Assembly (NCBI GenBank): GCA_965205015.1
Contig: OZ242029.1
Location: forward strand, 1,504,001-1,568,000
Length of the DNA stretch: 64,000 bases
Source of the DNA: Candidatus Poribacteria bacterium
Lineage (GTDB): Bacteria > Poribacteria > WGA-4E > WGA-3G
Reading direction: 5' to 3'
Shown: positions 4,635 to 27,601 of the stretch, in pieces
How the letters are laid out: the number at the start of each line of letters is the position of its first letter
Position numbering within the stretch: position 1 is the first letter of the stretch
Translations under genes and position numbers: made by a program
Notes under the pieces: model-generated
Told to the model about the DNA's origin: nothing
Seen by the model: only the letters and a program-made list of their open reading frames with translations
The model's database searches: none

Positions 4635-4646
4635 CTGTTCTCCTTT

Positions 4647-7176: not shown

Positions 7177-7239
7177 GATAGATTCCTCGAATTTTTCGTT
7201 TTTTAACCTAATGCTCTGTCAGGATTATTTTGAGAGGTT

Positions 7240-9013: not shown

Positions 9014-9025
9014 TTTCAATAGTCC

Positions 9026-9103
9026 TCAGCAATCAGCAGTCAGCAGTCAGCAAGATAGTAGCCAGCCATTTTTCCGACAACTGACGACTGACAACCGACA
9101 ACC
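9026..9103. repeat. Heptamer-array inverted repeat element (family B: (TCAGCAG/TCGGTTN)n ... (CTGACAA/CCGACAA)n)
   Basis: tcagcaa-tcagcag-tcagcag-tcagcaa ... ccgacaa-ctgacga-ctgacaa-ccgacaa; related copies at 705-753, 47305-47391, 49894-50062, 54878-54946, 56186-56300, 61935-62066. Confidence 0.7.
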
Positions 9104-9107
9104 ATTT

Positions 9108-10631
9108 CTAACTCATATCATATCGTAGGAAGGACACATAAGCCACCATGAATAGGACGATATTCCATGCGAATAAAATCAGAATATCCACGGAAGCGCG
9201 CGCGAAACTTTCTGAGATGGAGAGCCTTTTATGTTTAAAAACAGGCAGATCTGCCAAGTCCGCAACCCCCTTATCTGTGGAAAACCATGCCCGCGAAGAA
9301 AACGCTTCTTTATCCTTCAGATATTCGACAATCTCACGTTTATAGGCTCTGGAATCCTGAATAAAATCGTTATAACTCTGCCGGTCGGTTCCTGCTATTG
9401 TCCCGACAGCGAAGTGATATACGTCTGCGAACGAGATACGGGAGAGCGCGTCTGCGAGTTTAGCATTCCGCTCTCGTTCTTCGGCAGGTTTGTTGAGAAT
9501 TTCCTCCGCTTTACTCGCATATTCACTCCGAAGCCGCTCTTGATACCCTAAAAGTTCTTGGAAGATAGTGGTATCCGCTTTAGTAACATTTGTGACGCTA
9601 TAACGCCTGAGTCTGAAATAGCCTCCCGTATGGGAACTCGAACCTAACCCCGTTGAACTCGTCTCAGGTTCCCAAACAATTGACGCTTGCAAATTGTCAT
9701 AGCCTCTCTGTTGGAAGTAGGCATCCCGCTCTTTTTTGTACTCGTCCCAAACATCAAAGGCAGGTTGAAGAAATGTCCCTTCAGATTGCGACACATACGG
9801 CGAGAATTTGTCCACTGCAAACGTTACAACATTCGCATGCACACTCGTCAGGACCACCCAGATAAACATGGAAAGGATTAAGGTCGTTGCAGCTGTCTTC
9901 GTCCAAACTGACAGGAGCAATCCCAGAAGATACCACGTCGACACGTACAACAATGAGACCCCAAACATCAGGATGATATGCGTAATATCGTTTCCATCAA
10001 ACCCGGTAACTGGAGAAGAAACAGCGATGAGGAGTGCCACGATTAAACTCACCAAAACGATCGGGAACAGCGACAGCATCCCACCGAGATATTTTCCCAA
10101 AACGACTGTATCCCTCGGTATCGAATTGGACAATACAAGCTTCAGCGTGCCGTCTTCCCTCTCTCCCGAAATCGTATTGTAAGCGAACAGAATTGCCAAC
10201 GCGCTCAGCACGATCTTGAAGATGAAAACCACATCAACTGTCAGGAACATCGCAAGGAAGGGGTTGTCTGAGCCTCGTTTCTGTGTCGGTGCCCCCCACA
10301 TAGGGGAGGAGAATTCAAAGATAGGCTTTCCCAATTCAACGGTGACCGTATTTGCCCCCTCATTCTCCGCTCCGACGTTAAAGATACTCAACGGATTCGG
10401 TTTTCGGTGCGCTTTCGGTTTGATGTCGACATAGAGATCCCATTCCCGCGCTTCCACCTCCGCCTCCCGGACAGCGGTATTGTACCCCGACAAACGCTTC
10501 TCATAATCGTCCACTTGGACGAAAACGGCAACAGCGGTTGAAAGCACACATACAATAAACCCAATCATGAAGCGGGATGTCAACACATTCGAGACGAATT
10601 CTCGTTGGATAACCAGCCAAAGTGTCTGCAT
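9108..10631 (-). CDS. ABC-2 type transporter permease (type A, copy 1)
   Basis: Same motifs as 4647..6185; GGAGG RBS upstream of ATG 10631. Confidence 0.85.
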   Translation of the reverse strand: MQTLWLVIQREFVSNVLTSRFMIGFIVCVLSTAVAVFVQVDDYEKRLSGYNTAVREAEVEAREWDLYVDIKPKAHRKPNPLSIFNVGAENEGANTVTVELGKPIFEFSSPMWGAPTQKRGSDNPFLAMFLTVDVVFIFKIVLSALAILFAYNTISGEREDGTLKLVLSNSIPRDTVVLGKYLGGMLSLFPIVLVSLIVALLIAVSSPVTGFDGNDITHIILMFGVSLLYVSTWYLLGLLLSVWTKTAATTLILSMFIWVVLTSVHANVVTFAVDKFSPYVSQSEGTFLQPAFDVWDEYKKERDAYFQQRGYDNLQASIVWEPETSSTGLGSSSHTGGYFRLRRYSVTNVTKADTTIFQELLGYQERLRSEYASKAEEILNKPAEERERNAKLADALSRISFADVYHFAVGTIAGTDRQSYNDFIQDSRAYKREIVEYLKDKEAFSSRAWFSTDKGVADLADLPVFKHKRLSISESFARASVDILILFAWNIVLFMVAYVSFLRYDMS

Positions 10632-10658
10632 CAAGGCACCTCCGATAGTAGGTTTCGG

Positions 10659-11634: not shown

Positions 11635-12438
11635 TTAGTCAGCAACTGCCCTCTGCTTCACATCGCCCCAAGTGGCGGCAACCTTGTCTTCCGGTGAAAC
11701 TACGAGGAAACCTTTCATCGCCTTCTCAATTTCCGCCTGAGAGAGCGCACGTCGCCAGACACCCACTTCGTCAATAGAGCCATTCTTGAAGGTATACTGT
11801 GGATGGTTTTTGGTACATCCGATGCGAAGGTCTATGTCATTGGCCCCACTGAATTCAAATGCTCTGTCAACGTTGGAGAGGATTTCGCCATTCAAATAGA
11901 TCTTTGCGGTCTTACCATCGTAAGTCCCAGCAATGTGGTGCCAGTTTTTATCTACCATTGCCCCCGTGGTGTTGAAGCCATACACGGCTTGGATTCCGCC
12001 TAAACGCATTCCAATATTTGGGCCCTTGAATGCCCCGACATCATTGATGAGTCCCATACTGTAGCCCTTCTTCTCCTCACCCAAAACATAACTACCCTTG
12101 TCAAACCACATTCCTGAATTCTTATCCCAATCTTCATTGAATACCCAAGCCATCATCGTTATCTTGTCTTCGAGTTTTAACAGATCATCCGTGGGGATAT
12201 GGACGCACTCATCGTCTTCCGCTACAGCGGCAATATGAAGCGCATTCCCATATTTGCCTTTGACAAAATCTACATTTGCGATGATTTCAGCATCAAGATC
12301 ATTGCCAGAGGCATCAAGAACCCTCTTACCCTTCACGTTGTCAAAGGAAAAAAACACAACCAGATCTTTATCGAGTCCCGCAAAGACTTGGCTCCCTGCA
12401 AATAGTACAAGAATCAAAGGAAATAGTATCCGTTTCAT
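11635..12438 (-). CDS. Secreted LamG-like jellyroll protein with C-terminal DKVAATWGDVK motif (paralog of 10793..11602)
   Basis: Signal peptide; WHHIAGTYDG, GSIDEVGVWRRAL; 4-bp overlap with upstream gene. Confidence 0.85.
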   Translation of the reverse strand: MKRILFPLILVLFAGSQVFAGLDKDLVVFFSFDNVKGKRVLDASGNDLDAEIIANVDFVKGKYGNALHIAAVAEDDECVHIPTDDLLKLEDKITMMAWVFNEDWDKNSGMWFDKGSYVLGEEKKGYSMGLINDVGAFKGPNIGMRLGGIQAVYGFNTTGAMVDKNWHHIAGTYDGKTAKIYLNGEILSNVDRAFEFSGANDIDLRIGCTKNHPQYTFKNGSIDEVGVWRRALSQAEIEKAMKGFLVVSPEDKVAATWGDVKQRAVAD

Positions 12439-15428
12439 TTTTTCTCCTCCAATGGATATTGATGTGGAACGATTTCAACAATTTTATCTCCAGCGTTCGC
12501 CTCGAAAAAGGCGGCAACATCATCAATCATCTCAGTCTTGATTTCATGTCTGGTATTCTCGTAGGTAACAAATTGCGCAGGAATACCAAGTGCCGTGTAT
12601 ATCGCCTGACTCATGTCCCATCGATCCGGCATCATTTTCGCGCCAATGAGGCTTTTGACCAACTCGGCATCCACCTCATCATAAGCATCCGGATACGGAA
12701 GGGTATCATTGTCATCCAAGGCACCCATGTAGATGTACTGGGAGACTTTTTTATACGCTGCTTCATCAAAGTCAACCCCAGCGATCTCTTTCACGTCCGC
12801 AATTCCAACCGGGTAACGCATCGTCGTACCGTTCCATTGACCCGTTGGGAAGGTCGGAATGCAGTTGATGCCACCCGTTGCGACAGCGCGAACAACCGTT
12901 GGGTGTAAAATGGTAAACCGATTTGTAAATGTCCCGGAAGCTGAAAACCCGTTCATGAAGACCTTCTCATCCACCTTGACATCATTGTGTCGTAGGAGCC
13001 TTTGGGCATGATTTATCATTCTGATGAGTTGCAAGTCGATCCGCCTAAGTCCTCCTTCTTGAATCAGGAGGGTATCTCTATCTAAAGCGTGCGTGTAGAT
13101 ATGTCCCCGATCTCCGCCGGGTCTCGGAAAAACTGGAACGAGCAATGGGACTTTCAGTTTTCTTGCGATTGCAGTCGCATGCGATCCCTCCGCTAATTCC
13201 TTTGTACTCCTATCGTGGATTTTAAAATTGTCACTCAGTGTTCCCGTGTTGCAAGGCTCTATCAGTAGATGAACCGGTTTGCTGGAATCCATTCCTCGTG
13301 GAACGAACAGATAATACGGAAAAGCAAATCCTTCTGTGAGGTCGGCTGAAATGCGATAAAGCAATTCATTCGAGAGATCGAGTTCTTCAATATCTGTTAC
13401 ATGGATAGGTGTCATATCCACAAAAGTAGGCGTAACTGGATCGGGACCTTCCGTTGTAAATGTTAGGATATACTCTTCCAGCGGAACGCCAGTCATATTC
13501 CTGTAACCTTCATTGCGTCCCAATATAAGTCTATAGATTTTTGAAGGTGATAGACGTTGATTAAACGAAATAACGAGGGTTGTATTGTCATCTTCCCACT
13601 GGATATCACCGAGTGGAACCCCGGCAAACCCGACATCCATTCCCTGCATCCTCTCGCTGAAGACGATTCGTATCTCTTTCAGATCCGTAGAAACTTTTTT
13701 AGATACGTCGGGAATAGTTCTTTCTACTTTTGGCGGTGTTGTCCCTTGTTGCGCCAAATCGGCATTTTCGGCGACTTGCCATTTCTCAATAACCGCTTCG
13801 TCCCGGTAACTATTTTGCCATCTATATGTCCACGTGTTATCAATCTGCAAGGGAAGGTATTCTTCTCCTTTGGCTGGAACATTGTATTCAAGCAGCTCCG
13901 CCTCCGTAACGACACCGTTGGCATGTTCATAGCGCATTTTCACGAGTCCAACACCTTTAGCGAACCATAAATAACGCGTGCCGTTGACAAGCGAACTCTT
14001 GCGCTCAGCACCGGCATTAGCACCTGTGAAGACGGTTTTATGCTTCAGGCATATTGTGAAAATGTCCGCGGAGACATCCACGGCTTCATAGCCCTCCAAG
14101 GTTGTCTCCACCTGTGAATCCCAATCCCCTTCCTGGGTCCAAGTATCTCCAACAACCAGGGGAAATCTAAATAGGTCTGTTGGATGGTGCACAAGATAAC
14201 GGACCAACATGTACCTCGGCGATGGATCGTTTTTCCCCATTCCACGAGTTTGATAACTTGCGGAGGTCAAAGCCGTATCGGTTTCCCTGAGCGTAACAGT
14301 GCCATCCGCCAAATGTTGTCCGGTTTCCGTAGCAGCGTTGGCACTTAGAACAATGGTGCGTTCATCTGAATATTGATACGGGTTAATTTCAACTATATCG
14401 GCACCCGAATTCGCCTCAAAAAACGCGACGACATCATCAATCATCTCCCGCCTGATTTCATGTCGAGTATTCTCATAAGTAACAAATTGCGCGGGAATTT
14501 CAAGTGTCTTGTATATCGACTGACTCACGTCCCACCGATCCGGCATCATTTTCGCGCCGATGAGGCTTTTGACTAACTCGGCATCTACTTCATCATAAGC
14601 ATCCCGGTACGGAACGGTATCGTTGTTATCCAACGCACCCATATAAATGTATTGGGAGACACGTTTATATGCCGCTTCGTCAAAGTCAATCCCGGTGATC
14701 TCTTTTACGTCCGCTATGCCGACGGGATAACGCATTGGGGTCCCGTTCCATTGATCTGTTGGGAAGGTCAGAATGCAGTTGACACCCCCCGTCGCGACGG
14801 CTCGGACAATCTTTGGGTGCAAAATCGCAAACCGATTCGTAAACGTCCCAGAAGCTGAAAATCCGTTCATGAAAACTCGCTCATTTATCTTCATGTTGTT
14901 GTGCCGCAGGAGCCCTTGGGCATGATTTATCATTTTGATCAGCTGCAGGTCAATTCTCTTGAGATCTCCGTCCGCAATCAGAAGGGTGTCTCTATCTAAG
15001 GAATGCGTATAGATTCGCCACCGCTCTCCACCCGGTCTCGGGAAAACAGGCACCAGTAGCGGAACTCCTAACTTGCGTGCGATTTTGTTAGCGTGGGAGG
15101 ATTTTTTTAATGCCAAGGACTTTGCTTTGCTATCATGGCGTTCAAAATCGTCACTGGTCGTTCCTGTATTACACGGTTCTACGAATAGATGAACCGGTTT
15201 GCTGGAATCCATCCCTTCTGGGACAAACAGATAATATGGGAAGGAAAATCCGGCTGCAGGGTTTGCTGATACACGTGCAGCTAACCCCTTTGAAAGATCC
15301 AGGTTCCCGGTATCTTCAATGTGAACAAAATCAATGGGTAGTGCTGTATCTTGCTGCGCCAAAAGGGTGGCTGATGCCCCGCACAAAAAGATCATTAACA
15401 CGCCCAACAGGATAAAAGGGGTTGCCAT
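12435..15428 (-). CDS. Secreted multidomain protein: alpha/beta-hydrolase - shared beta module - Ig-like (Big_5-like) - alpha/beta-hydrolase
   Basis: Signal peptide; two near-identical copies of MNGFSASG, GALD(N/D)ND and ENTRHEI; central NGTRYLWFAKGVGLVKMRYEHANG module; TPPKVERTIP..IRIVFSERM..YILTFTT. Confidence 0.75.
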   Translation of the reverse strand: MATPFILLGVLMIFLCGASATLLAQQDTALPIDFVHIEDTGNLDLSKGLAARVSANPAAGFSFPYYLFVPEGMDSSKPVHLFVEPCNTGTTSDDFERHDSKAKSLALKKSSHANKIARKLGVPLLVPVFPRPGGERWRIYTHSLDRDTLLIADGDLKRIDLQLIKMINHAQGLLRHNNMKINERVFMNGFSASGTFTNRFAILHPKIVRAVATGGVNCILTFPTDQWNGTPMRYPVGIADVKEITGIDFDEAAYKRVSQYIYMGALDNNDTVPYRDAYDEVDAELVKSLIGAKMMPDRWDVSQSIYKTLEIPAQFVTYENTRHEIRREMIDDVVAFFEANSGADIVEINPYQYSDERTIVLSANAATETGQHLADGTVTLRETDTALTSASYQTRGMGKNDPSPRYMLVRYLVHHPTDLFRFPLVVGDTWTQEGDWDSQVETTLEGYEAVDVSADIFTICLKHKTVFTGANAGAERKSSLVNGTRYLWFAKGVGLVKMRYEHANGVVTEAELLEYNVPAKGEEYLPLQIDNTWTYRWQNSYRDEAVIEKWQVAENADLAQQGTTPPKVERTIPDVSKKVSTDLKEIRIVFSERMQGMDVGFAGVPLGDIQWEDDNTTLVISFNQRLSPSKIYRLILGRNEGYRNMTGVPLEEYILTFTTEGPDPVTPTFVDMTPIHVTDIEELDLSNELLYRISADLTEGFAFPYYLFVPRGMDSSKPVHLLIEPCNTGTLSDNFKIHDRSTKELAEGSHATAIARKLKVPLLVPVFPRPGGDRGHIYTHALDRDTLLIQEGGLRRIDLQLIRMINHAQRLLRHNDVKVDEKVFMNGFSASGTFTNRFTILHPTVVRAVATGGINCIPTFPTGQWNGTTMRYPVGIADVKEIAGVDFDEAAYKKVSQYIYMGALDDNDTLPYPDAYDEVDAELVKSLIGAKMMPDRWDMSQAIYTALGIPAQFVTYENTRHEIKTEMIDDVAAFFEANAGDKIVEIVPHQYPLEEKK

Positions 15429-15498: not shown

Positions 15499-15568
15499 CC
15501 TTGTGACGCTATGTCGTATTTTAAGGGCGGAAAGGTTGCATAAAATGAATTTTATGCCAATTTTTTTG
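15499..15568 (-). promoter_or_regulatory. Putative ECF sigma promoter (TGCAACC-N17-CGACAT) with overlapping palindrome, copy 2
   Basis: ~70-bp block nearly identical to 24612-24683; GCATAAAAT-GA-ATTTTATGC palindrome overlaps the -35. Confidence 0.7.
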
Positions 15569-15638
15569 CTAACTATGGTAAATTTCAGAATGACTTGGAC
15601 ATTGTGACCCGTGAATTTTCGGGTCAAAGGAGGCGTGA

Positions 15639-16778
15639 ATGGATACCTTATCTACGCATAACTGTTCCCCGGAAAACCGTGTGGATGATCTGTTACGACC
15701 GGAAGTGCTTCAGGCGTTTGAGCGTGCTACGTTTGAGCGCGATGGATATTGGGTGTGGGAAGGGATACTGACGGACGCTGCCCGTAAACGGTGGACAGCC
15801 AGCTTGCAGAAGTTACAGCAGATGAACGATGCGATCCTCATGGATACGGAGTGGAGTGCTATCGACTTTGAGGCGCGGGGATTTCCTCCGCCTTCGCCTG
15901 AACAAATCACACCGGAGTTTTTGGCAGCGTGCTGTGGCGGTTCAGAGCAAATGCCGGGTTTCCTCAGAACCGCTGAGTTGCGTCAATATATGCACACCTA
16001 CGGGCTATTCGGGCCGGGAGCGGCGTTGATCACACATGGATTCGAGTCGCAAGGCGTTATGCCGGAATACTTCCCTGCCGGATATGACGAATTTATCATG
16101 GATGTGACCAGTGCTCACCCGCAAATGATGGCACTCTTCACGAAACTTTTCGGGGACCGATTCATACTTGACCACTGTTTTATGCTCAACCGGGCGATCG
16201 GTTCAAAAGGACGTCGATGGCATGCACATCAGTATCGGGATGGGCAGTACGAAGTTGAGGACCCCATTGGGACCGGAAACGCCCTTACCCCTGAATTTCT
16301 AAAACGACAGTGTATTCGGACGCTGTGCTATCCAGAAGGGGCAACCATCGAAGAGGGTGGAGAACTTGCGATTATCCCTGGAGCGCATCTCTATCGCATT
16401 CCGTACAAATGGAGCACAGAACGACCCGATGATGACGCTGCCATGAAAGCAGGGTGGTTGAAGGGTAAAATTCACGCCTTTACAAGGAAACCCTTAGAAA
16501 TTGTACATCTCTCGCTACCGCCCGGAAGCATGGTGTCCTTTGTCCATCATATGCCGCATTATGTTGGTTATCGAAAACCGGGGACGACGACTCGGTGGGG
16601 ACTCCTGATGGCGTATCGAACGCCCGACCCGGATGCAGAACCGGAAAAGTGGACAAATGGTATTCCCACCCATTGGGTGGAACAGGCCGCGGCTCAAGGA
16701 AAGCTGTCTGCTGCGGCGCAGCGTGTGTTTGAGGCTGATAATCCCATCCACAAGCATCTGAGAACGTACCGGTCATAA
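15639..16778 (+). CDS. Phytanoyl-CoA dioxygenase (PhyH)-like Fe(II)/2OG oxygenase
   Basis: FERDGYWVWEGIL, RRWHAH, LAIIPGAHL, LPPGSMVSFVHHMPH; GGAGG RBS. Confidence 0.7.
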   Translation: MDTLSTHNCSPENRVDDLLRPEVLQAFERATFERDGYWVWEGILTDAARKRWTASLQKLQQMNDAILMDTEWSAIDFEARGFPPPSPEQITPEFLAACCGGSEQMPGFLRTAELRQYMHTYGLFGPGAALITHGFESQGVMPEYFPAGYDEFIMDVTSAHPQMMALFTKLFGDRFILDHCFMLNRAIGSKGRRWHAHQYRDGQYEVEDPIGTGNALTPEFLKRQCIRTLCYPEGATIEEGGELAIIPGAHLYRIPYKWSTERPDDDAAMKAGWLKGKIHAFTRKPLEIVHLSLPPGSMVSFVHHMPHYVGYRKPGTTTRWGLLMAYRTPDPDAEPEKWTNGIPTHWVEQAAAQGKLSAAAQRVFEADNPIHKHLRTYRS

Positions 16779-16809
16779 TGTCCAAGTCATGCTAAAATTT
16801 ACCATAAAA

Positions 16810-19182
16810 TTACCGACTGTTGCCCAATATTTCTGACCAGATCGAACGTTGCGATCCTGTACTATCTGCGCTTTTCGTGATGGTAACACCAATAGTATCC
16901 GCTTCCAACGGCGGTTTCTTGGAAGCGTCCCCACCTAATGTAACAGGTAAGATCATTTCTGTACCCTCTCGTCCAAGGGTTAACTCCACCACATCGCCGG
17001 ATTTCCACCGCTTGGCAAGTTTCGCTATGTCGCTAAATGAATTCACGGGTGTACCATTGATGGCAGCCAGATGATCTCCATCTTGATACGCAGGGGATTT
17101 ATCAATAATCACATCCCCCGCCGGCGTTTGTGTAAGGGACCGGATACCGAGCATCTCTTTGAAAACATAACCGAGGTCGGGAAGTTCCTCCTCTATCTGT
17201 ACATCCAGACCCGCCTCTCCGAAATATTCAGCGAGCGGCAATTTTTCCGTTCCCGAAACATACTTTCGGAAGAACGGCTCAAAATTTTTATCCGCAACGT
17301 CAGTAACAATGCGGATGACATCATCTATCGTATACTTTTCACCGGTGGTCCCAAACTCCTGATACATCTGCTTCATTACGTCGTCCAGACTCTTTTGTCC
17401 CGCGTCTATTGAGACGTGTGTGAGTTTGCGGATTTGCACATCTAATGCAGCGGCAACCAGACCGCCACCGCGATAGACTAAACCCGAGTTCGCCATTTTG
17501 GCTTCACCCGCCCTGCGTAGGGAGAGTTTCCCCACCTGACCCAGATACGACTCACAGGAACGCCCAAGGTTTTTGAGGAAATCGCCTTCAGAAAGGAGCC
17601 CAAGCTGAACAGAGATAATCCTTGAATAATAATCGGTGAACCCTTCCATAAACCAGTATTCCTGCTCATCAAAAAAATCAATAGCTGTGCCGATCCAGAT
17701 ATGGCAAATTTCATGTGCGACCAGCGGCACCCAAAAATTCTTACTGGTTTCATCTAAGGATCCACCCATCAGAACGCTGATGCTGTGTCCAGAAACACCG
17801 CCGCACGTTTCACCTTTCCCGCCATAAGGATTTGCGACAAATAGCATCCTGCCCTTCGGGGTACCACCGAATACCCTTGAATACGCGTGTAAAAGTGCTT
17901 CCACTGTGCGTTGCATTTCATCAGCGGCGGCTTTAAAGCGCCCACCGATTGCGACTACAATCTCCGCCTCTTTAGACTTCGCCACCTTCTCAGAATGCGT
18001 GCCAAGCACCATATACGCATACATCAAATCGTCCTGATCTCCAATAGCAAAACGGTGTCCTTTATCGCCAATGCGCTGCCAAGGGGTCGAGACGTGCCAA
18101 TTCTCTGGCACATCAACATAGAGTTCGATATCGCTCGCCTCACCAACGATAAACAAGGCATATCCAGGACAGAAAATACAGTCTTCTTGGAGATATGGAG
18201 CCTCACTCTGACCGGTGGGCCACTCTCGTTCATCATGGTTCAGCAGTACTTTGTAACTCAGCGTCACAGGCGATTTATCCGTTGTTTTAATTGCCCAACG
18301 CGTTTTACCGAGGAGCACCTGTGGCAATTTTTCTCCGTCAGCATTCGTGACTGATATATCCCTGAGGTACCTTTCATATCCATCATGTATATTTTCCGTG
18401 CCAAACTCACTCATGGATAACAAGAGGGTCTCGCCACTGTTCCGTTTTGGGGTTAAGACGCAACTGACGTGCGCCACGCGTCGCTCATCAGCATCTATTT
18501 TGATCTCATACCTCGCTGACGCAAGTTCCATCGGGTTCCCTAAATCTTCAGGTTTTTCAAAATTTCTGACGACGCGACACGTCTCAATAACCGCTTCGTC
18601 ACGATAATCGTTCTGCCACTTATATCGCCACATATTACCGACTTGTAAGGGAAGGTATTCTTGTGCTTCGGTAGGAACTTCATATTCAAGCAACTCAGCT
18701 TCCGTAACAACACCGTTGGCATGCTCATAACGCATCTTTACAACTCCAATGCCTTCGGCGAACCATAGATAGCGCGTGCCGTTCACAAGCGAGTTTCGCT
18801 GTTCAGAACCCGCTTCCGCGTCCGTAAAGACTGTCTTATGCTTTAGGCAATCAGAAAAGATGCCTGCGGAAATTTTTACCGACTCATAGCCTTCCAAGCT
18901 TGTCTTTGTCCGCGTGTTCCAGTGTCCTCCTTCCGTCCAGATATCCCCAATCCTTATAGGAAATCGAAAGAGGTCAGTTTCATGGTGACTGATATAATAC
19001 AGCAACATATACCTCGGCGATGGATCGCTCCCACCGGTCCCACTGGAGCCAAAATCGGTGGATGTCAAAGCCGTATCGGTTCTTTCGAGATCGAAAACGC
19101 CTTCTGCCAAACGCATTCCACTTTCTGTAGCGGCACTGGCACTCAGGACGATGTTACGTTCGGATTTAATCGTTTCTTCCAT
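16810..19182 (-). CDS. M61-like zinc metallopeptidase with PDZ domain and N-terminal shared beta module (predicted active)
   Basis: VAHEICHIW...WFMEGFTDYY gluzincin motif; YRGGGLVAAALDVQIR, SLDDVMK; PDZ-like C-terminus; start MEETIKSERN at 19182 matches paralog start. Confidence 0.8.
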   Translation of the reverse strand: MEETIKSERNIVLSASAATESGMRLAEGVFDLERTDTALTSTDFGSSGTGGSDPSPRYMLLYYISHHETDLFRFPIRIGDIWTEGGHWNTRTKTSLEGYESVKISAGIFSDCLKHKTVFTDAEAGSEQRNSLVNGTRYLWFAEGIGVVKMRYEHANGVVTEAELLEYEVPTEAQEYLPLQVGNMWRYKWQNDYRDEAVIETCRVVRNFEKPEDLGNPMELASARYEIKIDADERRVAHVSCVLTPKRNSGETLLLSMSEFGTENIHDGYERYLRDISVTNADGEKLPQVLLGKTRWAIKTTDKSPVTLSYKVLLNHDEREWPTGQSEAPYLQEDCIFCPGYALFIVGEASDIELYVDVPENWHVSTPWQRIGDKGHRFAIGDQDDLMYAYMVLGTHSEKVAKSKEAEIVVAIGGRFKAAADEMQRTVEALLHAYSRVFGGTPKGRMLFVANPYGGKGETCGGVSGHSISVLMGGSLDETSKNFWVPLVAHEICHIWIGTAIDFFDEQEYWFMEGFTDYYSRIISVQLGLLSEGDFLKNLGRSCESYLGQVGKLSLRRAGEAKMANSGLVYRGGGLVAAALDVQIRKLTHVSIDAGQKSLDDVMKQMYQEFGTTGEKYTIDDVIRIVTDVADKNFEPFFRKYVSGTEKLPLAEYFGEAGLDVQIEEELPDLGYVFKEMLGIRSLTQTPAGDVIIDKSPAYQDGDHLAAINGTPVNSFSDIAKLAKRWKSGDVVELTLGREGTEMILPVTLGGDASKKPPLEADTIGVTITKSADSTGSQRSIWSEILGNSR

Positions 19183-21586
19183 CAGTGCCTTCCTCACAAA
19201 AGTTGCCCTTGCCCAATATTCCTGACCAAATTGCCCGTTGCGCTTGTGTGCTATTTGCGCTTTTGGTGATGGTAACATCAATAGGACCCGCCTCCAACGG
19301 AGGGCTTTTAGACGCGTCCCCGCCTAACGTGACAGGTAGGATAATTTCTTTACCCTCCCTTTCAAGGGTTAACTTTACCATCTCACCCGGTTTCCACGCT
19401 TTGGCAGCCTTTCTGATGTCGTCAAAAAATTTCACCGGTGTGCCGTTGACACCTATCAGATTGTCCTCATCTTGATACTGCTCGGACTGGTGGATAAACA
19501 TACCGCCCCCTGTTGGTCCCCCGATTGAACTGATACCAAGCATCTCATGAACGACATACCCGAAACGCGGCAGCTCTTCGCTAAATTCTACATTTGCATC
19601 CACACCTGCATCTCCGAGATATTCCGTCAGGGGCAACCGATCTGTCCCTGAAACATACTTGCAGAAGAACGGTTCCAAATCTTCACCCGCAATTTGACCG
19701 ACAATTCTGATGACATCCTTCATTGTGTATTTGCTTCCGGTGAGACCGAATTCTTGATACATCTGCTTCATCACATCGTCCAAACTCTTCCGGTTTTGCG
19801 TGAGACTGCGAATCCGTAAATCCAGAGCCGCAGCAATGAGACTTCCTCCCTGATAGACGAGTTCACGGTTGGCGGATTTGTCTTCACCCGCCTCGCGGAT
19901 AGAAAGCTGCCCCTGTCGAGAGAGATACGATTCACACTTGCGTTCCAGATCCCTGAGAAAATCATTTTCAGAGGTTAATCCGAGACGGGTACAGATAATT
20001 CTCGAATAGTATTCGGTGAAACCTTCGCTAAGCCAGTATTCCTGCCATTTAAAATCGATAGTTTTTCCGATCCAGATATGGCAAATCTCATGCGCAACCA
20101 GCGGCACCCAAAAACTTCTATCGGTTTCACTCAAAGACCCACTCGTCAGAACAGTGATACTGCTTCCAGAAACACCGCCTCCGCGGTGTTTCTCATTGGG
20201 ATTTGCCACAAACAGCATACGATCCTGTGGCGTACCATCGAAAACTCCGGAATACGCGTGCAAGAGTGATTTAACAGTTTTTTGAACTTCATCCATAGAC
20301 GCCTTGAAGCGTCCACCCAGTGCAAGCACAATCTCGGGCTCTCCCGTCCCTCTTGACAAACGTGCCAACCTCTCAGAATGCGTTCCAAGTAAGAGATAGG
20401 CAGATATCAAATTGTTCTGGTCGGTGATAGCAAAACGGTGTCCCTGGTTTCCAATACGTTGCCAAGATGTTGAAACATGCCAATTTTCAGGAACATCAAG
20501 ATACAGTTCGATATCCTCCACTTCTGCGGCGATGAACAGAGCATATCCGGGCCAAAAAATACAGTCCTCTTGGATGTAAGGGGTTTCAGGCTTACCCCAC
20601 TGCCATTCCCTCTCATCATGATTTAGTAACACTTTGTAATGCAATGTCACAGGTAAGTCATTCTCGGTTTCAATCATCCACTGTGTTTTGCCAATCTCTG
20701 TGACGGGTATTTTTTCACCATTAGCATCTGTGCCGCTTAGATCTCGCAGATATCTGCCATATCCCTCGTAGAGACCTTCCGTCCCAAAATGGCTCATGGA
20801 TAATAGCAACGGCTTTCGGTCGCCTTTTGTATCATGGGTCGCCTTTGGTGTTAAGACACACGTGACATGTGCGACACGCCGTTCAGCAGCATCTATTTTA
20901 ACTTGATACTGCGCCGACGCGAGTTCCATCGGATTATCAAGATTCTCAGGCTCACTGAAATTTCGGATGACGCGCCACTCCTCAATAGTTGCCTCGTCGC
21001 GAGAGATGTTCTGCCACCTGTATGTCCACTGTGTGCCAATCTGGACAGGGAGGTACTCTTGTGCCTCAACAGGCATCTCGTATTCAAGCAACTCGGCTTC
21101 CGTAACGATACCGTTGGAATGTTCATAACACATTTTCACGAGTCCAACACCCTTAGCGAACCACAAATAACGGGTGCCGTTCACAAACGCATTCCGCAGT
21201 TGAGCGTCGGCATCCTCAGCATCAGCGTTTGTGAAGACAGTTTTATGTTTAAGGCATGACGAAAAAGCCCCCGCGGAAACCTCAACTGTCTCAGACCCTT
21301 CCAAAGTTATCGTTGCTTCTGATTTGCAAGGACCCTCCTGCCGCCAATGATTTCCGATAACCACAGGAAATCTAAAGAGGTCACTCTCACCCCCATAGCT
21401 AACATGGCGTAGCAACATGTACATCGGGGAGCCAAGACTGCGCCCTTCCGTAGAAGAACCATTAGATGTCAAAGCCTCATTGGTCTTCTTGAAATTAAAA
21501 ATTCCTTCTGCCAAATGCACTCCATCTTCCGTAGCGGCACTGTTACTAAAGACAATATTACGTTCGGATTTAATCGTTTCTTTCAT
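19166..21586 (-). CDS. M61-like zinc metallopeptidase with PDZ domain and N-terminal shared beta module (predicted active)
   Basis: VAHEICHIW...WLSEGFTEYY; YQGGSLIAAALDLRIR; start overlaps upstream stop (TGATG). Confidence 0.8.
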   Translation of the reverse strand: MKETIKSERNIVFSNSAATEDGVHLAEGIFNFKKTNEALTSNGSSTEGRSLGSPMYMLLRHVSYGGESDLFRFPVVIGNHWRQEGPCKSEATITLEGSETVEVSAGAFSSCLKHKTVFTNADAEDADAQLRNAFVNGTRYLWFAKGVGLVKMCYEHSNGIVTEAELLEYEMPVEAQEYLPVQIGTQWTYRWQNISRDEATIEEWRVIRNFSEPENLDNPMELASAQYQVKIDAAERRVAHVTCVLTPKATHDTKGDRKPLLLSMSHFGTEGLYEGYGRYLRDLSGTDANGEKIPVTEIGKTQWMIETENDLPVTLHYKVLLNHDEREWQWGKPETPYIQEDCIFWPGYALFIAAEVEDIELYLDVPENWHVSTSWQRIGNQGHRFAITDQNNLISAYLLLGTHSERLARLSRGTGEPEIVLALGGRFKASMDEVQKTVKSLLHAYSGVFDGTPQDRMLFVANPNEKHRGGGVSGSSITVLTSGSLSETDRSFWVPLVAHEICHIWIGKTIDFKWQEYWLSEGFTEYYSRIICTRLGLTSENDFLRDLERKCESYLSRQGQLSIREAGEDKSANRELVYQGGSLIAAALDLRIRSLTQNRKSLDDVMKQMYQEFGLTGSKYTMKDVIRIVGQIAGEDLEPFFCKYVSGTDRLPLTEYLGDAGVDANVEFSEELPRFGYVVHEMLGISSIGGPTGGGMFIHQSEQYQDEDNLIGVNGTPVKFFDDIRKAAKAWKPGEMVKLTLEREGKEIILPVTLGGDASKSPPLEAGPIDVTITKSANSTQAQRAIWSGILGKGNFCEEGTDGRND

Positions 21587-24552
21587 CAGTCAGAATTCTC
21601 CTTGCCTAACATTCCTAACCAGATGGCGCGTTGCGAGTCCGTGGCATCCGCGCTCTTTGTGATGGTAACATCAATAGGTCCAGCTTCAAGGGGAGGTTTT
21701 TCAGATGTGTTACCCGCTAATGCGACCGGTAGGGTAATTTCCTCCCCCTCTCTCTCAAGCGTTAACGCTACGACATCACCGGAACGCCAATCTTTGGCAA
21801 CCTTTCTAATGTCGTCAAACGTCTTCACCGAGGTACCGTTGATGCTTATCAACGCATCGTCATCCTGATATTGCGGTGACTGATGGATGAACATACCGCC
21901 GCCTGTTGGTCCACCAAGTGAATTGATATGAAGCATCTGAAAAAGAATATACCCAAGACTTGGAAGTCTTTCGCCAAAGTCTATCTCAACACTCATACCC
22001 GCGTCCTTAAGATATTTCTCTAACGGCAACCGCTCTGTCCCTGCCACATATTTGTGGAAGAAGGGTTTAAAATCTTCACCCGTCATTTGGCTGACGATCC
22101 GGATGACATCGTTCATTGTATACCTAATATCGGTAAGACCGAATTCTTGATACATCTGCTTCATCACATCGTCCAAGCTGCTTCGGTTCTGTGTAAGTGT
22201 ACGGATCTGTAAATCCAGAGTAGCGGCGACTAAACTGCCACCGTCATAGACGAGTTCGCGGTTGGCGGATTTGTCTTTCCCTGCCTCGCGAATCGAAAGT
22301 TGTCCGTGTCGAGATAGATAAGATTTCCACCTGCGTTCAAACTTCCTGAGAAAATCGCTTTCAGAAATAAGTCCAAGGCGGGCAGAAACAACATCTGAGT
22401 AATATCCTGTGAAACCTGCGCTAAACCAATACTCCTGTTCCCTAAAAGTGATAGCCTGACCCGCAACCCAGAGACAGCAAACCATATATCCCACAAGCGG
22501 CAGCCAAAAACGTCTGCTCGCTTCATCTAATTCACCACCGATCAGCACGCTGATGCTGCGTCCGGACGCGCCTCCACTCATGTGTCCCTTTTCACCATAG
22601 GGGTTTGCAACAAACAACAGTTTACCTTCCGGGGTGCCACCGAATATCCCAGAATATGCGTCCAGAAGTCCCTCAATAGTCCCCTGTATTTCATTCATAG
22701 ACGCTTTGAAGTGTGCCCCAGTCACCAGCACAACCTCGGTATCCCCAACCTTTGCCAGACGCTCAGCGTGTTCACCGAGCACAAGATACGCATACATCAA
22801 GTCGTCGTGATCTTTACAAACGAAACGGTGCCCCTCAGACGCAATCCGTTCCCAAGGTGTTGAAACACGCCAATTCTCTGGCACATCCACACACAGTTCG
22901 ACATCGCTCGTCTCACCGACAACAAACAGCGCATACCCTGGACAGAAAATACAATCCTCTTGGACATAAGGGGCTTCATCTGGACCCGGTGCCCATTCCC
23001 ATTCATCGTGATTCAGCAACACTTTGTAACGCACCGTTATAGGTGATGCGTCCCGTGCTTTAACTAACCATTGCGTTTTGCCGATCTCCTCTACCGGCAA
23101 TGTTTCACCGTTTACATCGGTCACCGTCAAATCTCGAAGATACCGGGCATACCCATCATATACCCATTCAGCCCCAAAACGACTCATGGATAACAGCAAA
23201 GGCTTTTGCTCCCCTTTTGTACTGCCAACTTTCGGCGTTAGTACACACTTGACATGCGCCACGCGTCGTTCATCGGCATCTATTTTAACGTCATATCTCG
23301 CTGACGCAAGTTCCATGAGATTATCAAGATTTTCGGGATGACTGAAATTCCGGAGGACGCGCCACTCTTCAACGATCGCCTCATCGCGATAATCGTTGTG
23401 CCATCTGTATGTCCACTGCGTGCCAATTTGCGAAGGTAGGTATTCTTGTTCTTGGACGGGGATCTCATATTCAAGCAATTCGGCTTCTGTAATGACACCA
23501 TTGGCATGCTCATAGCGCATCTTCACGATCCCAACGCCCTCGGCAAACCACAGATAACGCGTGCCGTTTAGGTATGCGTTTCCCCCTTCAGCGTCGGGGT
23601 CTTCCACGTCAGCATCTGTGAAGACAGTTTTATGCTTCAGGCACGATCGGAAACTCCCAGCGGAGATTTCGACAGTCTCATACCCTTCCAAGGTTATCGT
23701 CGCTTTCGATTTGTAAGGACCTTCCTGCTCCCAACGACTTCCAATAACCAAAGGGAATTTAAAGAGGTTTATCTCATTACGACGGTGGTTAATATAGTGT
23801 AGCAACATGTACATTGGTAGCGGGTAGTCCCCTCTGAGCCCTGTCGTACGAGAACCCATAGATGCGAAAACCTTATCGGTTTGGCTGAGATCAAAACCCC
23901 CTTCCGCCAAATGTTTACCGGTTTCCATTGCCGCAGTTGCTTGAACACCAATGTATCGCTGTTCGTTTTTTAATAAATTCGGACTCAAGTTTTCCCGAAG
24001 CATCGACTCCTCCTGCTCCAATCGCTTCCGTGCACGATATAGTCGACTTTTTACTGTGTTCAAAGATACATCTAAACGCTCACTCACTTCCTCACATGTC
24101 AGACCGTTGAAATAGTGCAATATCATCACCGAACGCTCACTGGGCGTCAGTTTTTGGAGGAGGCGTTCCACGACTTCACGCAGTCCCTCCCTTGACGCTT
24201 GTGTTTGCTCTTTCTCAAGATATTGCGTATAGAACACTCCCTCTAACTCGGCTTTCGGCATCGCATCCAAAGACTGCATCGTCATCGGCTCTCGTCGCAG
24301 CCATTCAATACACTGACGTTTCGCTATGACATGTAACCACCCCGAAAAACGATTGGGGTCTCTCAAGCTTGGAAGCGACTTAAAAGCCTGGATGAAGGTG
24401 TCCTGTGTAATCTCCTGTGCGGCGTGGAAATCACCGATCTCACGCCACGCGAGCGAATGAATCCATTTCCGGTGTCTTTCCACCAGCGCGGTGAACGCAC
24501 CTTCATCGCCCGACAAGATGCGTTGAATCAGATTAACATCTTCGTTTTTCAC
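21586..24552 (-). CDS. ECF sigma-70 factor fused to shared beta module and a catalytically degenerate M61-like peptidase/PDZ
   Basis: Sigma region 2 (AQEITQDTFIQAF..FSGWLHVIA) and region 4 (LTCEEVSERLDVSLNTVKSRLYRARKRL); HEICH..E replaced by YMVCC..A; GTG start at 24552 after GGAGG, matching MKNNDIQLIQR of the sigma at 57671. Confidence 0.85.
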   Translation of the reverse strand: MKNEDVNLIQRILSGDEGAFTALVERHRKWIHSLAWREIGDFHAAQEITQDTFIQAFKSLPSLRDPNRFSGWLHVIAKRQCIEWLRREPMTMQSLDAMPKAELEGVFYTQYLEKEQTQASREGLREVVERLLQKLTPSERSVMILHYFNGLTCEEVSERLDVSLNTVKSRLYRARKRLEQEESMLRENLSPNLLKNEQRYIGVQATAAMETGKHLAEGGFDLSQTDKVFASMGSRTTGLRGDYPLPMYMLLHYINHRRNEINLFKFPLVIGSRWEQEGPYKSKATITLEGYETVEISAGSFRSCLKHKTVFTDADVEDPDAEGGNAYLNGTRYLWFAEGVGIVKMRYEHANGVITEAELLEYEIPVQEQEYLPSQIGTQWTYRWHNDYRDEAIVEEWRVLRNFSHPENLDNLMELASARYDVKIDADERRVAHVKCVLTPKVGSTKGEQKPLLLSMSRFGAEWVYDGYARYLRDLTVTDVNGETLPVEEIGKTQWLVKARDASPITVRYKVLLNHDEWEWAPGPDEAPYVQEDCIFCPGYALFVVGETSDVELCVDVPENWRVSTPWERIASEGHRFVCKDHDDLMYAYLVLGEHAERLAKVGDTEVVLVTGAHFKASMNEIQGTIEGLLDAYSGIFGGTPEGKLLFVANPYGEKGHMSGGASGRSISVLIGGELDEASRRFWLPLVGYMVCCLWVAGQAITFREQEYWFSAGFTGYYSDVVSARLGLISESDFLRKFERRWKSYLSRHGQLSIREAGKDKSANRELVYDGGSLVAATLDLQIRTLTQNRSSLDDVMKQMYQEFGLTDIRYTMNDVIRIVSQMTGEDFKPFFHKYVAGTERLPLEKYLKDAGMSVEIDFGERLPSLGYILFQMLHINSLGGPTGGGMFIHQSPQYQDDDALISINGTSVKTFDDIRKVAKDWRSGDVVALTLEREGEEITLPVALAGNTSEKPPLEAGPIDVTITKSADATDSQRAIWLGMLGKENSD

Positions 24553-24611
24553 GATGACCCTCCAAGTCATTTGATAGCAAGTTTCGGAGACCTGTAAGCT
24601 TCGCCGAAATG

Positions 24612-24683
24612 CCTTGTGACGTTATGTCGTATTTTAACGGGGGTAAGGTTGCATAAAATGCAATTTTATCTAAAATTTTTTTG
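24612..24683 (-). promoter_or_regulatory. Putative autoregulatory ECF sigma promoter (TGCAACC-N17-CGACAT), copy 1
   Basis: AAC-type -35 and CG-type -10 with ECF-like spacing upstream of the sigma gene; duplicated at 15499-15568. Confidence 0.7.
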
Positions 24684-24906
24684 TTGTGGGAAAAAAATAA
24701 AGGAAGATGTCTGTGGACTATCGTATCTTTAATCAATACCACCAACTTTCATGCGCCAGTGGTGCGCGATTGAGCGTATCCCGATATGTCCGCCATTAAG
24801 GAATTGCTGAAGGTGTTCGGTCCCTTTCGCGAGTTGATAGATGTGTTGCAGACGCGCTGTTACGATCTCCCGCTGCGAGGTTCCGCCACCAAATCGCCAA
24901 TATTGT

Positions 24907-24959
24907 CGGGAATCGGAGTTCCCTCCTACAGAAGAGAGGCGAGGTTGGGAAACCTCGCC
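24907..24959. repeat. REP-like hairpin cluster adjacent to IS left end
   Basis: Reverse strand GTAGGAGGGAACTCCGATTCCC and hairpin GGCGAGGTT-GGGA-AACCTCGCC. Confidence 0.55.
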
Positions 24960-25091
24960 AGCGAAGGAGGTGCGTTTATCAAAACCTCCGAGTCTAAAAC
25001 CCCCTGCTTCAGCTGGGGGATACAGACTCGCTTTTGTGGACAGGGCCACGGGGTTATCTGTGAAAATTAATGTGCTTTTGCAGGCAAATCG

Positions 25092-25100
25092 TGGTATAAT
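25092..25100 (+). promoter_or_regulatory. Extended -10 promoter element for tnpB
   Basis: TGGTATAAT about 105 bp upstream of tnpB ATG. Confidence 0.45.
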
Positions 25101-25205
25101 GAAAGTATCGTATGAGGACCGGCATTATCAGCGTTACGGACTTGGGAGCGTGTCGGTTCCACCCACTGAGAAGGGGTAAAAGATGCGATATGCGAGAATC
25201 CAGCA

Positions 25206-26432
25206 ATGCCGAAGTTTCACCGCACCGATATCCTGAAAATAGAACCTCAACCGATATATGCTGAGATCAATGAGGCGTCGGGGTCTGTATGGAACGAGTG
25301 TCTCTCTCAAATGTCAATGTATCAGTGGCACCGTGGGTATCCTCACGCGTGGGACTTTTTCTACTTTGGTCCGGAGTGTGAAGGCTGGATTGATAAAAGG
25401 CTTACCAAATCCCAACCTTTGCATTCACAAAGTATTCAAGCTGTTCGTGAACGTTACTTTAAATCTTGGGAGTCCTATCGTATTCTGAAAAAGGGTAACC
25501 CAACTGCGAGACCCCCACGGAAGCCGAAACGCTTTTTGACGACCCGTTGGAAAAAATCAGCGATTCGCTTTCAAGACGGCTGCGTCTCTCTGTCAATGGG
25601 ACTGGGTAGAGATCGCCTCTGTATCCCTTTGCCTTCCAACTTCAATATGTCCAAAACGGAGCAGATTGCGACGATTGATTTGGTCTACACCTTCGGTCAA
25701 TGGGAACTCCATTTCTCCTATAGATACGAACTGGAAAAGACCGAAACAGGTAAAGGGGTTGTCGGCGTTGATATTGGTGAAATACACCCGATTGTGAGTC
25801 ATGACGGAACAGACACACGGATTTTCAATGGACGGTATATCCGCTCGCTCTATCGCCATAGAAACAAAGTGATTGCCGAGTTCAGTCAAGCCATCAGTCG
25901 GTGTAAACGCCATTCGAAACGCTGGTGGAAACTCACGCGTCGGAAGTGGAAATGTATCAAAAAGATTGACAATCAGCTTAAAGATGCGTTGCATCAACAT
26001 ACCTGTAAGTTTCTAAAGTATTGCAACCTCAAAGGCATCGGCACGATTGTGCTTGGCGACCTCACCGGTATCCGTCATCGCATTCACTACGGAAAACGTG
26101 CCAACCAGAAACTTCACCAGTGGGCTTTTGGTAAAATCACAGCATTGCTAACCTACAAAGCGAAGGTGTTTGGTATCAAGGTTGTGCAGATTGACGAAGC
26201 CTACACCTCACAAACTTGCCCAAGCTGTGGCAATCGGAAGAAACCTACAAATCGGACCTATACCTGCCCCTGCGGGTTCAAATACCATCGCGACGGTGTA
26301 GGTGCTATCAATATCAGAGCAAAGTATCTGGGACACTTTGGTGTCCCCGTAGTGGCGGACATGGACCTGCGAACCATGAAGATGACACCGCCCTTGGGCT
26401 TTCGATTGAAAGTCCCTGTTGCCTCGTCTTAG
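25206..26432 (+). CDS. tnpB: TnpB RNA-guided endonuclease (rearranged RuvC-II type)
   Basis: RuvC-I GVDIG, RuvC-II IVLGDL with downstream DEAYTSQTC, zinc finger CPSC..CPCG, RuvC-III HRDGVGAINI. Confidence 0.92.
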   Translation: MPKFHRTDILKIEPQPIYAEINEASGSVWNECLSQMSMYQWHRGYPHAWDFFYFGPECEGWIDKRLTKSQPLHSQSIQAVRERYFKSWESYRILKKGNPTARPPRKPKRFLTTRWKKSAIRFQDGCVSLSMGLGRDRLCIPLPSNFNMSKTEQIATIDLVYTFGQWELHFSYRYELEKTETGKGVVGVDIGEIHPIVSHDGTDTRIFNGRYIRSLYRHRNKVIAEFSQAISRCKRHSKRWWKLTRRKWKCIKKIDNQLKDALHQHTCKFLKYCNLKGIGTIVLGDLTGIRHRIHYGKRANQKLHQWAFGKITALLTYKAKVFGIKVVQIDEAYTSQTCPSCGNRKKPTNRTYTCPCGFKYHRDGVGAINIRAKYLGHFGVPVVADMDLRTMKMTPPLGFRLKVPVASS

Positions 26433-26503
26433 ACGCGAGGAATGTTCCTACAAGGAACAAAAGAACCCCTGGTTTCCTTTAGGCTTGGGAGTATGTCAGG
26501 CTC

Positions 26504-27601
26504 CTAATAATCGGCAATAGAGCCATCCGCCAATCGACTGTTGGGCCAGGTGAAACGTCTATCCTCTTCCTGTCCGACTTCAATCACTTTTGCCTCATCA
26601 ACGGTAACTCCTAAGCCAGGTCCCTCTGGAAGCGAAACGTAACCCTCTTCGTCCATCTCCCACGCTTTGTGGGCAACGCCATCTGGAAGGACGTTCTCAT
26701 AACCCTCGTGGATCAGGAAAAACGGCACAGCGGCGGATAAGTGCAAACTCGCGGTGAGACCGAGGTAGGACATCGTGCAATGCGGTGCGATCGGGACATG
26801 ATGCGCCTCTGCGAGTGCGGCGACCTTTTTGACCTGTGTGATACCGCCGCCGTGTCCAACATCGGGTTGAAGGATGTCAATGACTTGTGCTTCCAGGATT
26901 TCTCGGACCTCCCAGATTGTTCGGTCGCGCTCTCCTGTGGCGAGCGGCACAGGAACGGATTCCCGGATTTTACGCATCACTTCAATATTGCCCGGGACCC
27001 ATGCCTCCTCTAAAAAGAGGAGGTCGTCTGGCTGGAGATAACTCGCGAATTGTTTGACAATGGGTGGCGGTAGGCAGCTATGCGCATCGAACATCACGGC
27101 ACCATCGGAACCGACCTGATCCCGTGCATCCCGTACGCGTCGAACGAGATCAGCGATTTCATCGGGGGTGCCAGCAAAGGGTTTGGAGCCTCCCGGTCCC
27201 GTCTTAATTGCTTTCGGACTCGGATACTTCCAAATCTTATCGCGGCAGGGACCGCCGAGCAAGCGATAGACGGGTACGCCCCAGAGTTTCCCGGCAATAT
27301 CCCACAGTGCCATATCAATGGCGGAGATGGTATGCACCATCAAGCCACCGCCCCGGATGTTGCGATGTGCGCGGAACAATCGCTGCCAGTGATGCTCAAT
27401 CCGCGTCGGGTTTTCCCCGATAATCAACTCGGACAACGAACGCGCCAACGCACAGGTGACGGTCGTCTCCATATTGTTGATCTCGCCCCACCCCGTAACC
27501 CCCATGTTCGTTTCAATCTTGACGTAGGCTTTCACACCCATCGGAAAAGCCTCAAGGTTGGTCACTCGAATCTGTGAACCTTTATCTTCATAATCTGCCA
27601 T
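26504..27601 (-). CDS. Mandelate racemase/muconate lactonizing enzyme family (galactonate dehydratase-like)
   Basis: SAIDMALWDIAGK, MFDAH, FLEE, LATGER, ILQPDVGHGGGIT, IAPH. Confidence 0.9.
   Translation of the reverse strand: MADYEDKGSQIRVTNLEAFPMGVKAYVKIETNMGVTGWGEINNMETTVTCALARSLSELIIGENPTRIEHHWQRLFRAHRNIRGGGLMVHTISAIDMALWDIAGKLWGVPVYRLLGGPCRDKIWKYPSPKAIKTGPGGSKPFAGTPDEIADLVRRVRDARDQVGSDGAVMFDAHSCLPPPIVKQFASYLQPDDLLFLEEAWVPGNIEVMRKIRESVPVPLATGERDRTIWEVREILEAQVIDILQPDVGHGGGITQVKKVAALAEAHHVPIAPHCTMSYLGLTASLHLSAAVPFFLIHEGYENVLPDGVAHKAWEMDEEGYVSLPEGPGLGVTVDEAKVIEVGQEEDRRFTWPNSRLADGSIADY

Follow-up and report, generated by a model that had tools for sequence, protein, structure and literature searches.

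The window analyzed here is a 64,000-nt stretch of contig OZ242029.1 from a Candidatus Poribacteria genome, and all coordinates are given relative to it. A noncoding block of about 62–70 bp occurs in it twice, as copies A and B (Table 1). We find it likely that this block is the cognate extracytoplasmic function (ECF)-type promoter of a sigma factor fused to an M61 pseudopeptidase, and that it defines a small regulon. Copy B lies before the sigma gene itself, and copy A lies before a run of genes for an exported hydrolase, LamG proteins and ABC-2 type permeases. On the strand of these genes, both copies present an AAC-containing -35 and a -10 of the CGT/CGA kind about 16–18 nt apart, which are the sequence marks of an ECF-type promoter. 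The sequence mark of an autoregulated regulon, a motif placed before the sigma gene and before a limited set of operons, is found as well. The proposed assignment to this particular sigma factor, and not to one of its paralogs, rests on the association between the two across genomes. From the same kind of comparison, we infer the transcription start sites, the dependence on this sigma factor, the extents of the operons and the signal sensed by the extension of the sigma protein.

The duplicated block and the sigma factor behind it

A sequence-only reading of this DNA had described the duplicated noncoding block and had read TGCAACC-N17-CGACAT on the minus strand of both copies. Both copies are found where that reading placed them, and the pattern is exact in each. 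Aligned on the minus strand, the copies match over about 62 nt, from ATAAAATT through CACAAGG, with four substitutions and one indel. Beyond this core, the flanks of A and B share no similarity. It had also been said that the differences fall in the spacer while the -35 and -10 are invariant, and indeed three of the four core substitutions are in the 5' half of the 17-nt spacer. Conservation extends to TTAAAA, the 3' half of the spacer, and there is an A/T-rich region upstream of copy B.

The 26-nt downstream part of the block, TTAAAATACGACATANCGTCACAAGG, has two matches in the window at up to three mismatches, where 0.00 are expected from 100 shuffles. The bare bipartite pattern gives three matches at up to two mismatches, where 1.74 are expected. 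Since the bare pattern is not rare by itself, the support for the block comes from the extended match. No further copy was found in the window at two to three mismatches or fewer, including degenerate copies in the intergenic gaps. Transcription is predicted to start at about 15505–15507 for copy A and at about 24618–24620 for copy B. The leaders predicted for the two operons are no more structured than shuffled sequences (z of -0.37 and -0.42). The sequence after CGAC, ATAACGTCAyrAGG (minus strand 15511–15499 and 24624–24612), is conserved well past the -10. Within it, the AGG about 12–14 nt after CGAC is especially conserved and would sit among the first transcribed bases.

The protein encoded behind copy B belongs to the ECF (group 4) sigma factors of the sigma-70 family. 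Its sigma domain is above the Pfam cut-offs for Sigma70_r2, Sigma70_r4_2 and Sigma70_ECF, and TIGR02937 scores 94.9 bits against a cut-off of 42.9. There is no region-3 sigma family among the Pfam matches listed for the protein, and all NCBIfam equivalog models fall below their cut-offs. The nearest solved structure to the sigma domain is that of Bacillus subtilis SigW (E 2e-20). The remaining ~800 aa form an extension made of a DUF3108-like module, M61_N, a degenerate M61 domain and a PDZ domain. In the M61 domain, the zinc motif HExxH is replaced by GYMVC. An HExxH-like motif appears in only one of the 75 orthologs that match a regular expression for the context of the motif; these were drawn from 120 listed homologs, 114 of them at least 900 aa long, and the 39 that do not match the expression are left out of the count. 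No membrane-helix-like stretch was seen in the fusion, where the highest Kyte–Doolittle mean over 19 residues is 1.59 and lies inside the M61 domain.

The true start of the sigma gene is probably the GTG at 24552, because it is preceded by GGAGG, the database copy is 988 aa long, and the alignment to paralogs begins at residue 7. No anti-sigma family occurs among the Pfam matches of the open reading frames (ORFs) of at least 240 aa between 1634 and 24570, so the locus does not have the form of a classical ECF/anti-sigma pair. Because there is no anti-sigma gene, we group the sigma factor with those ECFs whose C-terminal extension is regulatory.

The block in related genomes

For comparison, 52 loci were collected by a sigma-domain search of species-representative genomes. 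Two of these loci lack the start of the gene, and 41 of the others have at least 70% identity. A scan of orthologous loci had been proposed by the sequence-only reading, along with the inference that the block is the ECF target promoter on the minus strand. In 40 of the 41 loci, TGCAAC-N16-19-CGAC is found within 110 nt upstream of the sigma gene. An unselected alignment of the 41 upstream regions, made with the motif ignored, has its conservation peaks at GCATTTTATGCAACCTT and AAAA..CGAC.TAA, which correspond to the -35 and the -10; the 5' part of the spacer and the flanks are less conserved. These two results argue for the promoter inference.

Over the 52 loci and the window, all 64 pattern matches are oriented with the sigma strand, and 63 of them have the extended consensus (the remaining one, L011:2084, looks like chance). 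Many loci have a second or third motif copy 4–11 kb downstream, and orthologs of copy A with the same flanks are present in three of them (L019, L023 and L025). The distance from a motif copy to the first ORF is 8–263 nt. That first ORF comes from a small set: the sigma fusion, LamG proteins, ABC-2 permeases, M61 paralogs, full- or half-size hydrolases like the 997-aa protein of the window, and exported proteins of 428–525 aa, one of which has a weak DUF4097 match. Gene order varies among species, and the gene families behind the motif recur.

The sequence-only reading had also pointed to a palindrome that overlaps the -35 and is imperfect in the other copy. It is present as described, as a perfect 9+9 inverted repeat in copy A (Table 1) with two mismatches in copy B. 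At 61 unique sites in relatives, the arms have at most one mismatch in 20 cases and at most two in 40; a random A/T-rich model for the same arms gives about 0.9% and 6.6%, so the inverted repeat is enriched. This enrichment, and the conservation of flanks beyond a minimal -35 and -10, would be expected if the block were chiefly the binding site of a separate regulator recognizing an A/T-rich palindrome, with the promoter elsewhere. We give that very little credence. In 12 of the 22 sites that are not before a sigma gene, the arms are random-like, with three to four mismatches, yet TGCAACC and CGAC are kept. The left arm is far less conserved than the right arm, the -35 and the -10. A scan for sigma-70-type promoters that might serve instead found one weak match (9/12) near copy A, at 15517–15488 on the minus strand, and 25 matches against 21.6 expected, which is no excess over shuffles. 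The palindrome may be an added operator or UP-like element, and it cannot stand in for the promoter reading.

Read on the plus strand, both copies show GG-N10-TTGCA at the correct spacing for a sigma-54 promoter (GG-N10-GC), which might then serve the genes at 15639 and beyond 24700. In the relatives, only 36 of the 63 unique sites retain the -24 GG, and the C/T-rich spacer alone gives as much. The 379-aa plus-strand gene next to copy A accompanies a motif copy in only 6 of the 52 loci, and in relatives the gene upstream of copy B points the same way as the sigma gene, leaving a plus-strand promoter there with nothing to drive. Conservation also reaches about 25 nt upstream of the supposed -24. 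The GG that a sigma-54 promoter requires is thus not invariant, and we regard this possibility as largely refuted and highly improbable.

A TnpB-like gene about 520 nt from copy B, together with the palindrome in the block, could recall a mobile element or repeat remnant, such as an IS200/IS605 end linked to TnpB and duplicated by chance. None of the 52 loci has a TnpB relative, and the block is kept in them. The TnpB segment is itself a 1.7-kb insertion outside the block, and the 1–4 copies per genome all stand before one functional gene set. The 52 loci without TnpB and the position of the insertion refute an IS200/IS605 end, and the chance that the block is a remnant of this sort is negligible.

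The whole-genome distribution is also that of a small regulon. In five complete relatives, TGCAACC-N16/17-CGAC occurs at a background equal to that of the reversed control, plus 1–4 full-consensus sites per genome. The sites, up to four in a relative, include distal ones 160–250 kb away, and distal sites also stand upstream of an ABC-2-like permease. A stricter pattern applied to 175 genomes of the phylum found 99 sites in 60 genomes, again with 1–4 copies each, and the reversed pattern found none in all 175. It had been considered that the block might turn out to be a genome-wide repeat unrelated to this sigma factor, and these counts speak against that in the relatives. In the proposal of a two-operon regulon, the number two is only a lower bound, as the relatives reach four sites.

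An ortholog of the sigma factor was found by protein search in 57 of the 175 genomes (best E of 1e-88 or lower), with the next-best genomes at 5e-71 or worse. The motif is present in 56 of these 57 genomes versus 4 of the 118 others, which ties the motif to this sigma factor as an association only. One of the four, G037, has a match that looks like chance and has no ortholog. Judged by these comparisons, the block is a small-regulon signal that travels with this sigma factor.

Paralogous sigma fusions and the -10 base

The sigma factor is one member of a very large family. The closest complete relative (G003, the genome of locus L001), whose ortholog is 89–90% identical, has 75 sigma-domain matches. 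Fifty-seven of them have 41–55% identity, mostly within open frames of about 900–1,000 aa, and the other 18 are ordinary stand-alone ECFs at 25–35%. Among the 30 best paralogs in that genome, GCA[AC]C-N18-CG[TA]C is found within 250 nt upstream on the coding strand in 12, compared with 0 on the other strand and 0.04 in shuffles; a looser pattern is found in 16 of the 30, against 1.24 in shuffles. The -10 is CGTC in 11 of the 12 strict matches, and CGAC is found solely at the ortholog. Nine more distant homologs (about 50–60% identity) were also compared, and TGCAACC-N17-CGTC with the same spacing is present in five. The window itself contains a contrasting case, a sigma–WD40 propeller fusion that is an ECF paralog with 48% identity and has its own promoter-like site with CGTC (Table 1). 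That the block is a promoter for a sigma factor of this type is argued most strongly by this family-wide design of the upstream motifs.

The same family raises the question of which member reads the block. The 57 paralogs in the close relative, many with a nearly identical -35 (TGCAAC or TGCACC) at the same spacing, and the five distant homologs would fit a promoter read mainly by another paralogous ECF sigma fusion, or by several, in which case the adjacent sigma factor would not define the regulon. Excerpts of a study of B. subtilis describe related ECFs there as overlapping in promoter recognition (PMC5758882). We think this unlikely for the present block, since CGAC stands only before the ortholog among the 12 strict matches, the motif and the ortholog occur together in nearly all ortholog-bearing genomes, and the motif is directly upstream of this very sigma gene in all but one of the 41 closer loci.

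The third base of the -10 is the likely mark of specificity, as suggested by its distribution among orthologs and paralogs. As a candidate determinant of CGAC in the protein, we considered the Glu of sigma-2 (WRE, versus WRK or WRR in 30 paralogs). It is refuted by L044, L045, L046, L050 and L052, which have Glu together with CGTC; these loci had in part been selected through a WREIGDFH pattern. In a separate observation, several of the paralogous sigma-fusion frames (in G003, G001, G002 and others) carry one in-frame stop codon, TGA or TAA, inside the region that matches the sigma domain. Some of these stop positions are common to orthologs across genomes, and pseudogenes, split genes or recoding are all possible.

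Several points weigh against the block being the cognate promoter of this sigma factor. The roughly 57 paralogous sigma factors with nearly the same -35 in one relative leave room for reading by a paralog or for cross-talk. The spacer counted from TGCAAC is 18 nt (17 in 8 of 63 sites), which is at the long end for ECF promoters, and the conserved flanks, with the palindrome upstream and ATAACGTCAyrAGG downstream, exceed what a minimal promoter needs. At L031, one of the 41 loci, the place of the motif before the sigma gene is taken by sequence that looks coding. Among the genomes, G126 has an ortholog and no strict-pattern site, and G115, G131 and G169 have genuine-looking sites with no ortholog found; incomplete metagenome-assembled genomes could explain both kinds of exception. 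All the motif-bearing genomes belong to a single clade, which means that the co-occurrences cannot be counted as independent events. Finally, the start sites and the dependence on this sigma factor are drawn from comparison.

Promoters of this kind are familiar from other bacteria. Excerpts on B. subtilis give CGAC as the mark of the autoregulatory promoter specific to sigma-X and CGTC as a -10 that several ECFs read; the T-tract after the AAC of the -35 modulates selectivity (PMC5758882). The Poribacteria block resembles the autoregulatory promoters of sigma-X, -W, -M and -V as they appear there, in its -35 ending in AAC, its CGxC -10 and its T-tract after the -35. As with the B. subtilis ECFs, the promoter is directly before the sigma gene and is reused before a few envelope operons. 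It differs in its TGCAACC -35, which is preceded by a conserved ATTTTA, in a spacer that is one base longer when counted from AAC, and in the conserved TTAAAA of that spacer. The sigma factor differs in having its ~800-aa extension and no adjacent anti-sigma gene, and the host belongs to an uncultured sponge-symbiont phylum, in which the system is known from sequence alone.

A second comparison is with sigma-E of Streptomyces coelicolor, which stands alone and is under two-component control. Its targets include forms of TGCAACC...CGTCT with comparable spacing; the -10 there is CGTC, whereas the Poribacteria block has CGAC (PMC6767563). For ECFs that lack an anti-sigma gene, a long C-terminal extension is presumed to take over sensing and regulation, according to passages of PMC8999054. 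The Poribacteria sigma factor is like the C-terminal-extension ECFs of those passages in both respects, and an M61-type extension such as the one here is not named in them.

Within Poribacteria, the paralogous fusion genes share the design ATGCA(A/C)C, about 18 nt and CGTCAC, whereas this orthogroup has CGAC. The sensor of the paralog is a propeller, whereas this sigma factor has a pseudopeptidase and no membrane helix. In the library searched, no paper joins Poribacteria with extracytoplasmic function, or ECF, sigma, M61 and peptidase. Among the papers listed for Poribacteria and sigma factor, none is on this topic, as judged by titles and the beginnings of abstracts.

The two predicted operons, their neighbors and a proposed circuit

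The features discussed are collected in Table 1.

Table 1. Features of the window, with coordinates relative to its first base.
Feature	Coordinates	Strand	Remarks
426-aa gene without assigned function	1634–2914	-	ortholog follows ABC-2 genes in L019 and L028
Terminator-like hairpin after last stop	1639–1619	-	follows the 426-aa gene
Four ABC-2 type permeases (508, 483, 512 and 494 aa)	3150–10634	-	Pfam
Exported DUF3108-like protein, 294 aa, among the ABC-2 genes	6292–7176	-	Pfam
Two exported LamG (Laminin_G_3) paralogs, 267 and 269 aa	10793–12438	-	Pfam
Exported 997-aa double esterase-like protein, first gene of operon 2	12435–15428	-	AGGAG before ATG
Promoter copy A (putative)	15499–15568	-	-35 TGCAACC 15540–15534; CGAC 15516–15513, CGACAT ending at 15511
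Perfect 9+9 inverted repeat GCATAAAAT-GA-ATTTTATGC	15538–15557		overlaps the -35 of copy A by 3 nt
379-aa gene between the operons	15639–16778	+	no Pfam or NCBIfam match
M61 peptidase paralog, 823 aa as listed, HEICH intact	16810–19281	-	last gene of operon 1
M61 peptidase paralog, 806 aa, HEICH intact	19166–21586	-	start overlaps the stop of the sigma gene
Sigma–M61 pseudopeptidase fusion, 994 aa	21586–24570	-	Pfam; TIGR02937
Promoter copy B (putative)	24612–24683	-	-35 TGCAACC 24653–24647; CGAC 24629–24626, CGACAT ending at 24624
Lineage-specific insertion of ~1.7 kb upstream of promoter B	24797–26500	+	carries the TnpB-like gene
TnpB-like gene	25206–26432	+	Pfam OrfB_IS605 and Cas12f1-like_TNB
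GCACC-N18-CGTC motif upstream of the sigma–WD40 gene	57595–57621	+	paralog promoter-like site
Sigma–WD40 propeller fusion, ECF paralog 48% identical	57671–60760	+	contrast case

Operon 1, behind copy B, begins with the sigma gene. The 806-aa M61 gene is presumably co-transcribed with it, as its start overlaps the sigma gene stop, and the 823-aa paralog closes the operon.

Operon 2, behind copy A, begins with the 997-aa protein. Its two esterase/polyhydroxybutyrate (PHB)-depolymerase-like halves flank a DUF3108-like module and an Ig-like domain, and its orthologs are directly behind a motif copy in L013, L040, L035 and L039. The protein is the product of an internal duplication, with halves 83% identical at the DNA level (repeat D10), and versions half as long, about 440 aa, occur in some relatives. 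In L014 and L024, a LamG gene comes first after a motif copy, and ABC-2 permease genes are directly behind motif copies in L019, L029, L053 and L080. The four permeases of the window form two paralogous pairs, with 72–88% DNA identity in the repeat segments D9, D11, D13, D14 and D16. Gaps of 392 nt (7176–7568) and 106 nt (6185–6292) lie within the ABC-2 stretch. No ATP-binding cassette (ABC) ATPase gene of the usual size was found among the ORFs of at least 240 aa in positions 1–28000 of the window. The 426-aa gene and the hairpin after it are the probable end of the operon, and the whole of its ~14 kb would be co-transcribed.

A DUF3108-like module of about 190 aa is found at four places in the two operons: in the sigma extension, N-terminally in each of the two M61 paralogs, centrally in the 997-aa hydrolase and within the 294-aa exported protein. 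By this recurrence, the presumed sensor domain of the sigma factor is shared with products of its regulon.

Some neighboring features lie outside this system. The 379-aa plus-strand gene is not proposed as part of the regulon. In the insertion upstream of promoter B, homology to the relatives ends at 24797 and resumes at about 26500; the insertion lies between the sigma promoter and an enolase-superfamily-like gene (26504–27601). Farther away, two large formylglycine-generating-enzyme-like (FGE-sulfatase) proteins of 934 and 1010 aa (40660–46547) have repeated segments in common, and one has a TonB_C domain.

Taking the block as the cognate promoter, the following circuit may be proposed. The promoter would consist of an extended -35 (ATTTTATGCAACCTTT), a 17-nt spacer with TTAAAA at its 3' end and a -10 of CGAC(A/T)TAA. 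Copy B would drive the sigma gene and the two M61 paralogs with intact HEICH, giving positive autoregulation. Copy A would drive the exported double esterase-like hydrolase, the two LamG proteins, the DUF3108-like protein, the four ABC-2 permeases and the 426-aa gene. Once active, the sigma factor would raise its own level and switch on this envelope and export set, and the CGAC -10, in place of the CGTC of dozens of paralogs, would keep the regulon separate from theirs.

A bolder version of this circuit is speculative, and we would sooner expect it to fail than to hold. It makes the fusion a soluble, one-protein ECF switch that works without an anti-sigma factor: the dead M61/PDZ part would mimic the co-transcribed active M61 peptidases and sense their substrate or product. 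A single -10 base would keep the regulon apart from those of at least 50 paralogs, the 62-bp block would be a portable cassette, recruited time and again before various exported-protein and ABC-2 operons across the phylum, and the palindrome would provide a second layer of control.

ECF autoregulation with a small regulon is textbook biology, and these observations are of value for annotation and as a naturally occurring case of promoter orthogonality, not for any new mechanism. Distinctive of this case are the CGAC -10, the extension in the form of a soluble pseudopeptidase, and the large size of the family of paralogs from which the regulon has to be kept apart. For one member of a very large sigma-fusion family, the analysis offers a testable wiring diagram with a promoter, its genes and a candidate insulating -10 base. 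It would connect a sensor domain that is a dead peptidase with the production of an exported hydrolase, lectin-like proteins and ABC-2 transporters.

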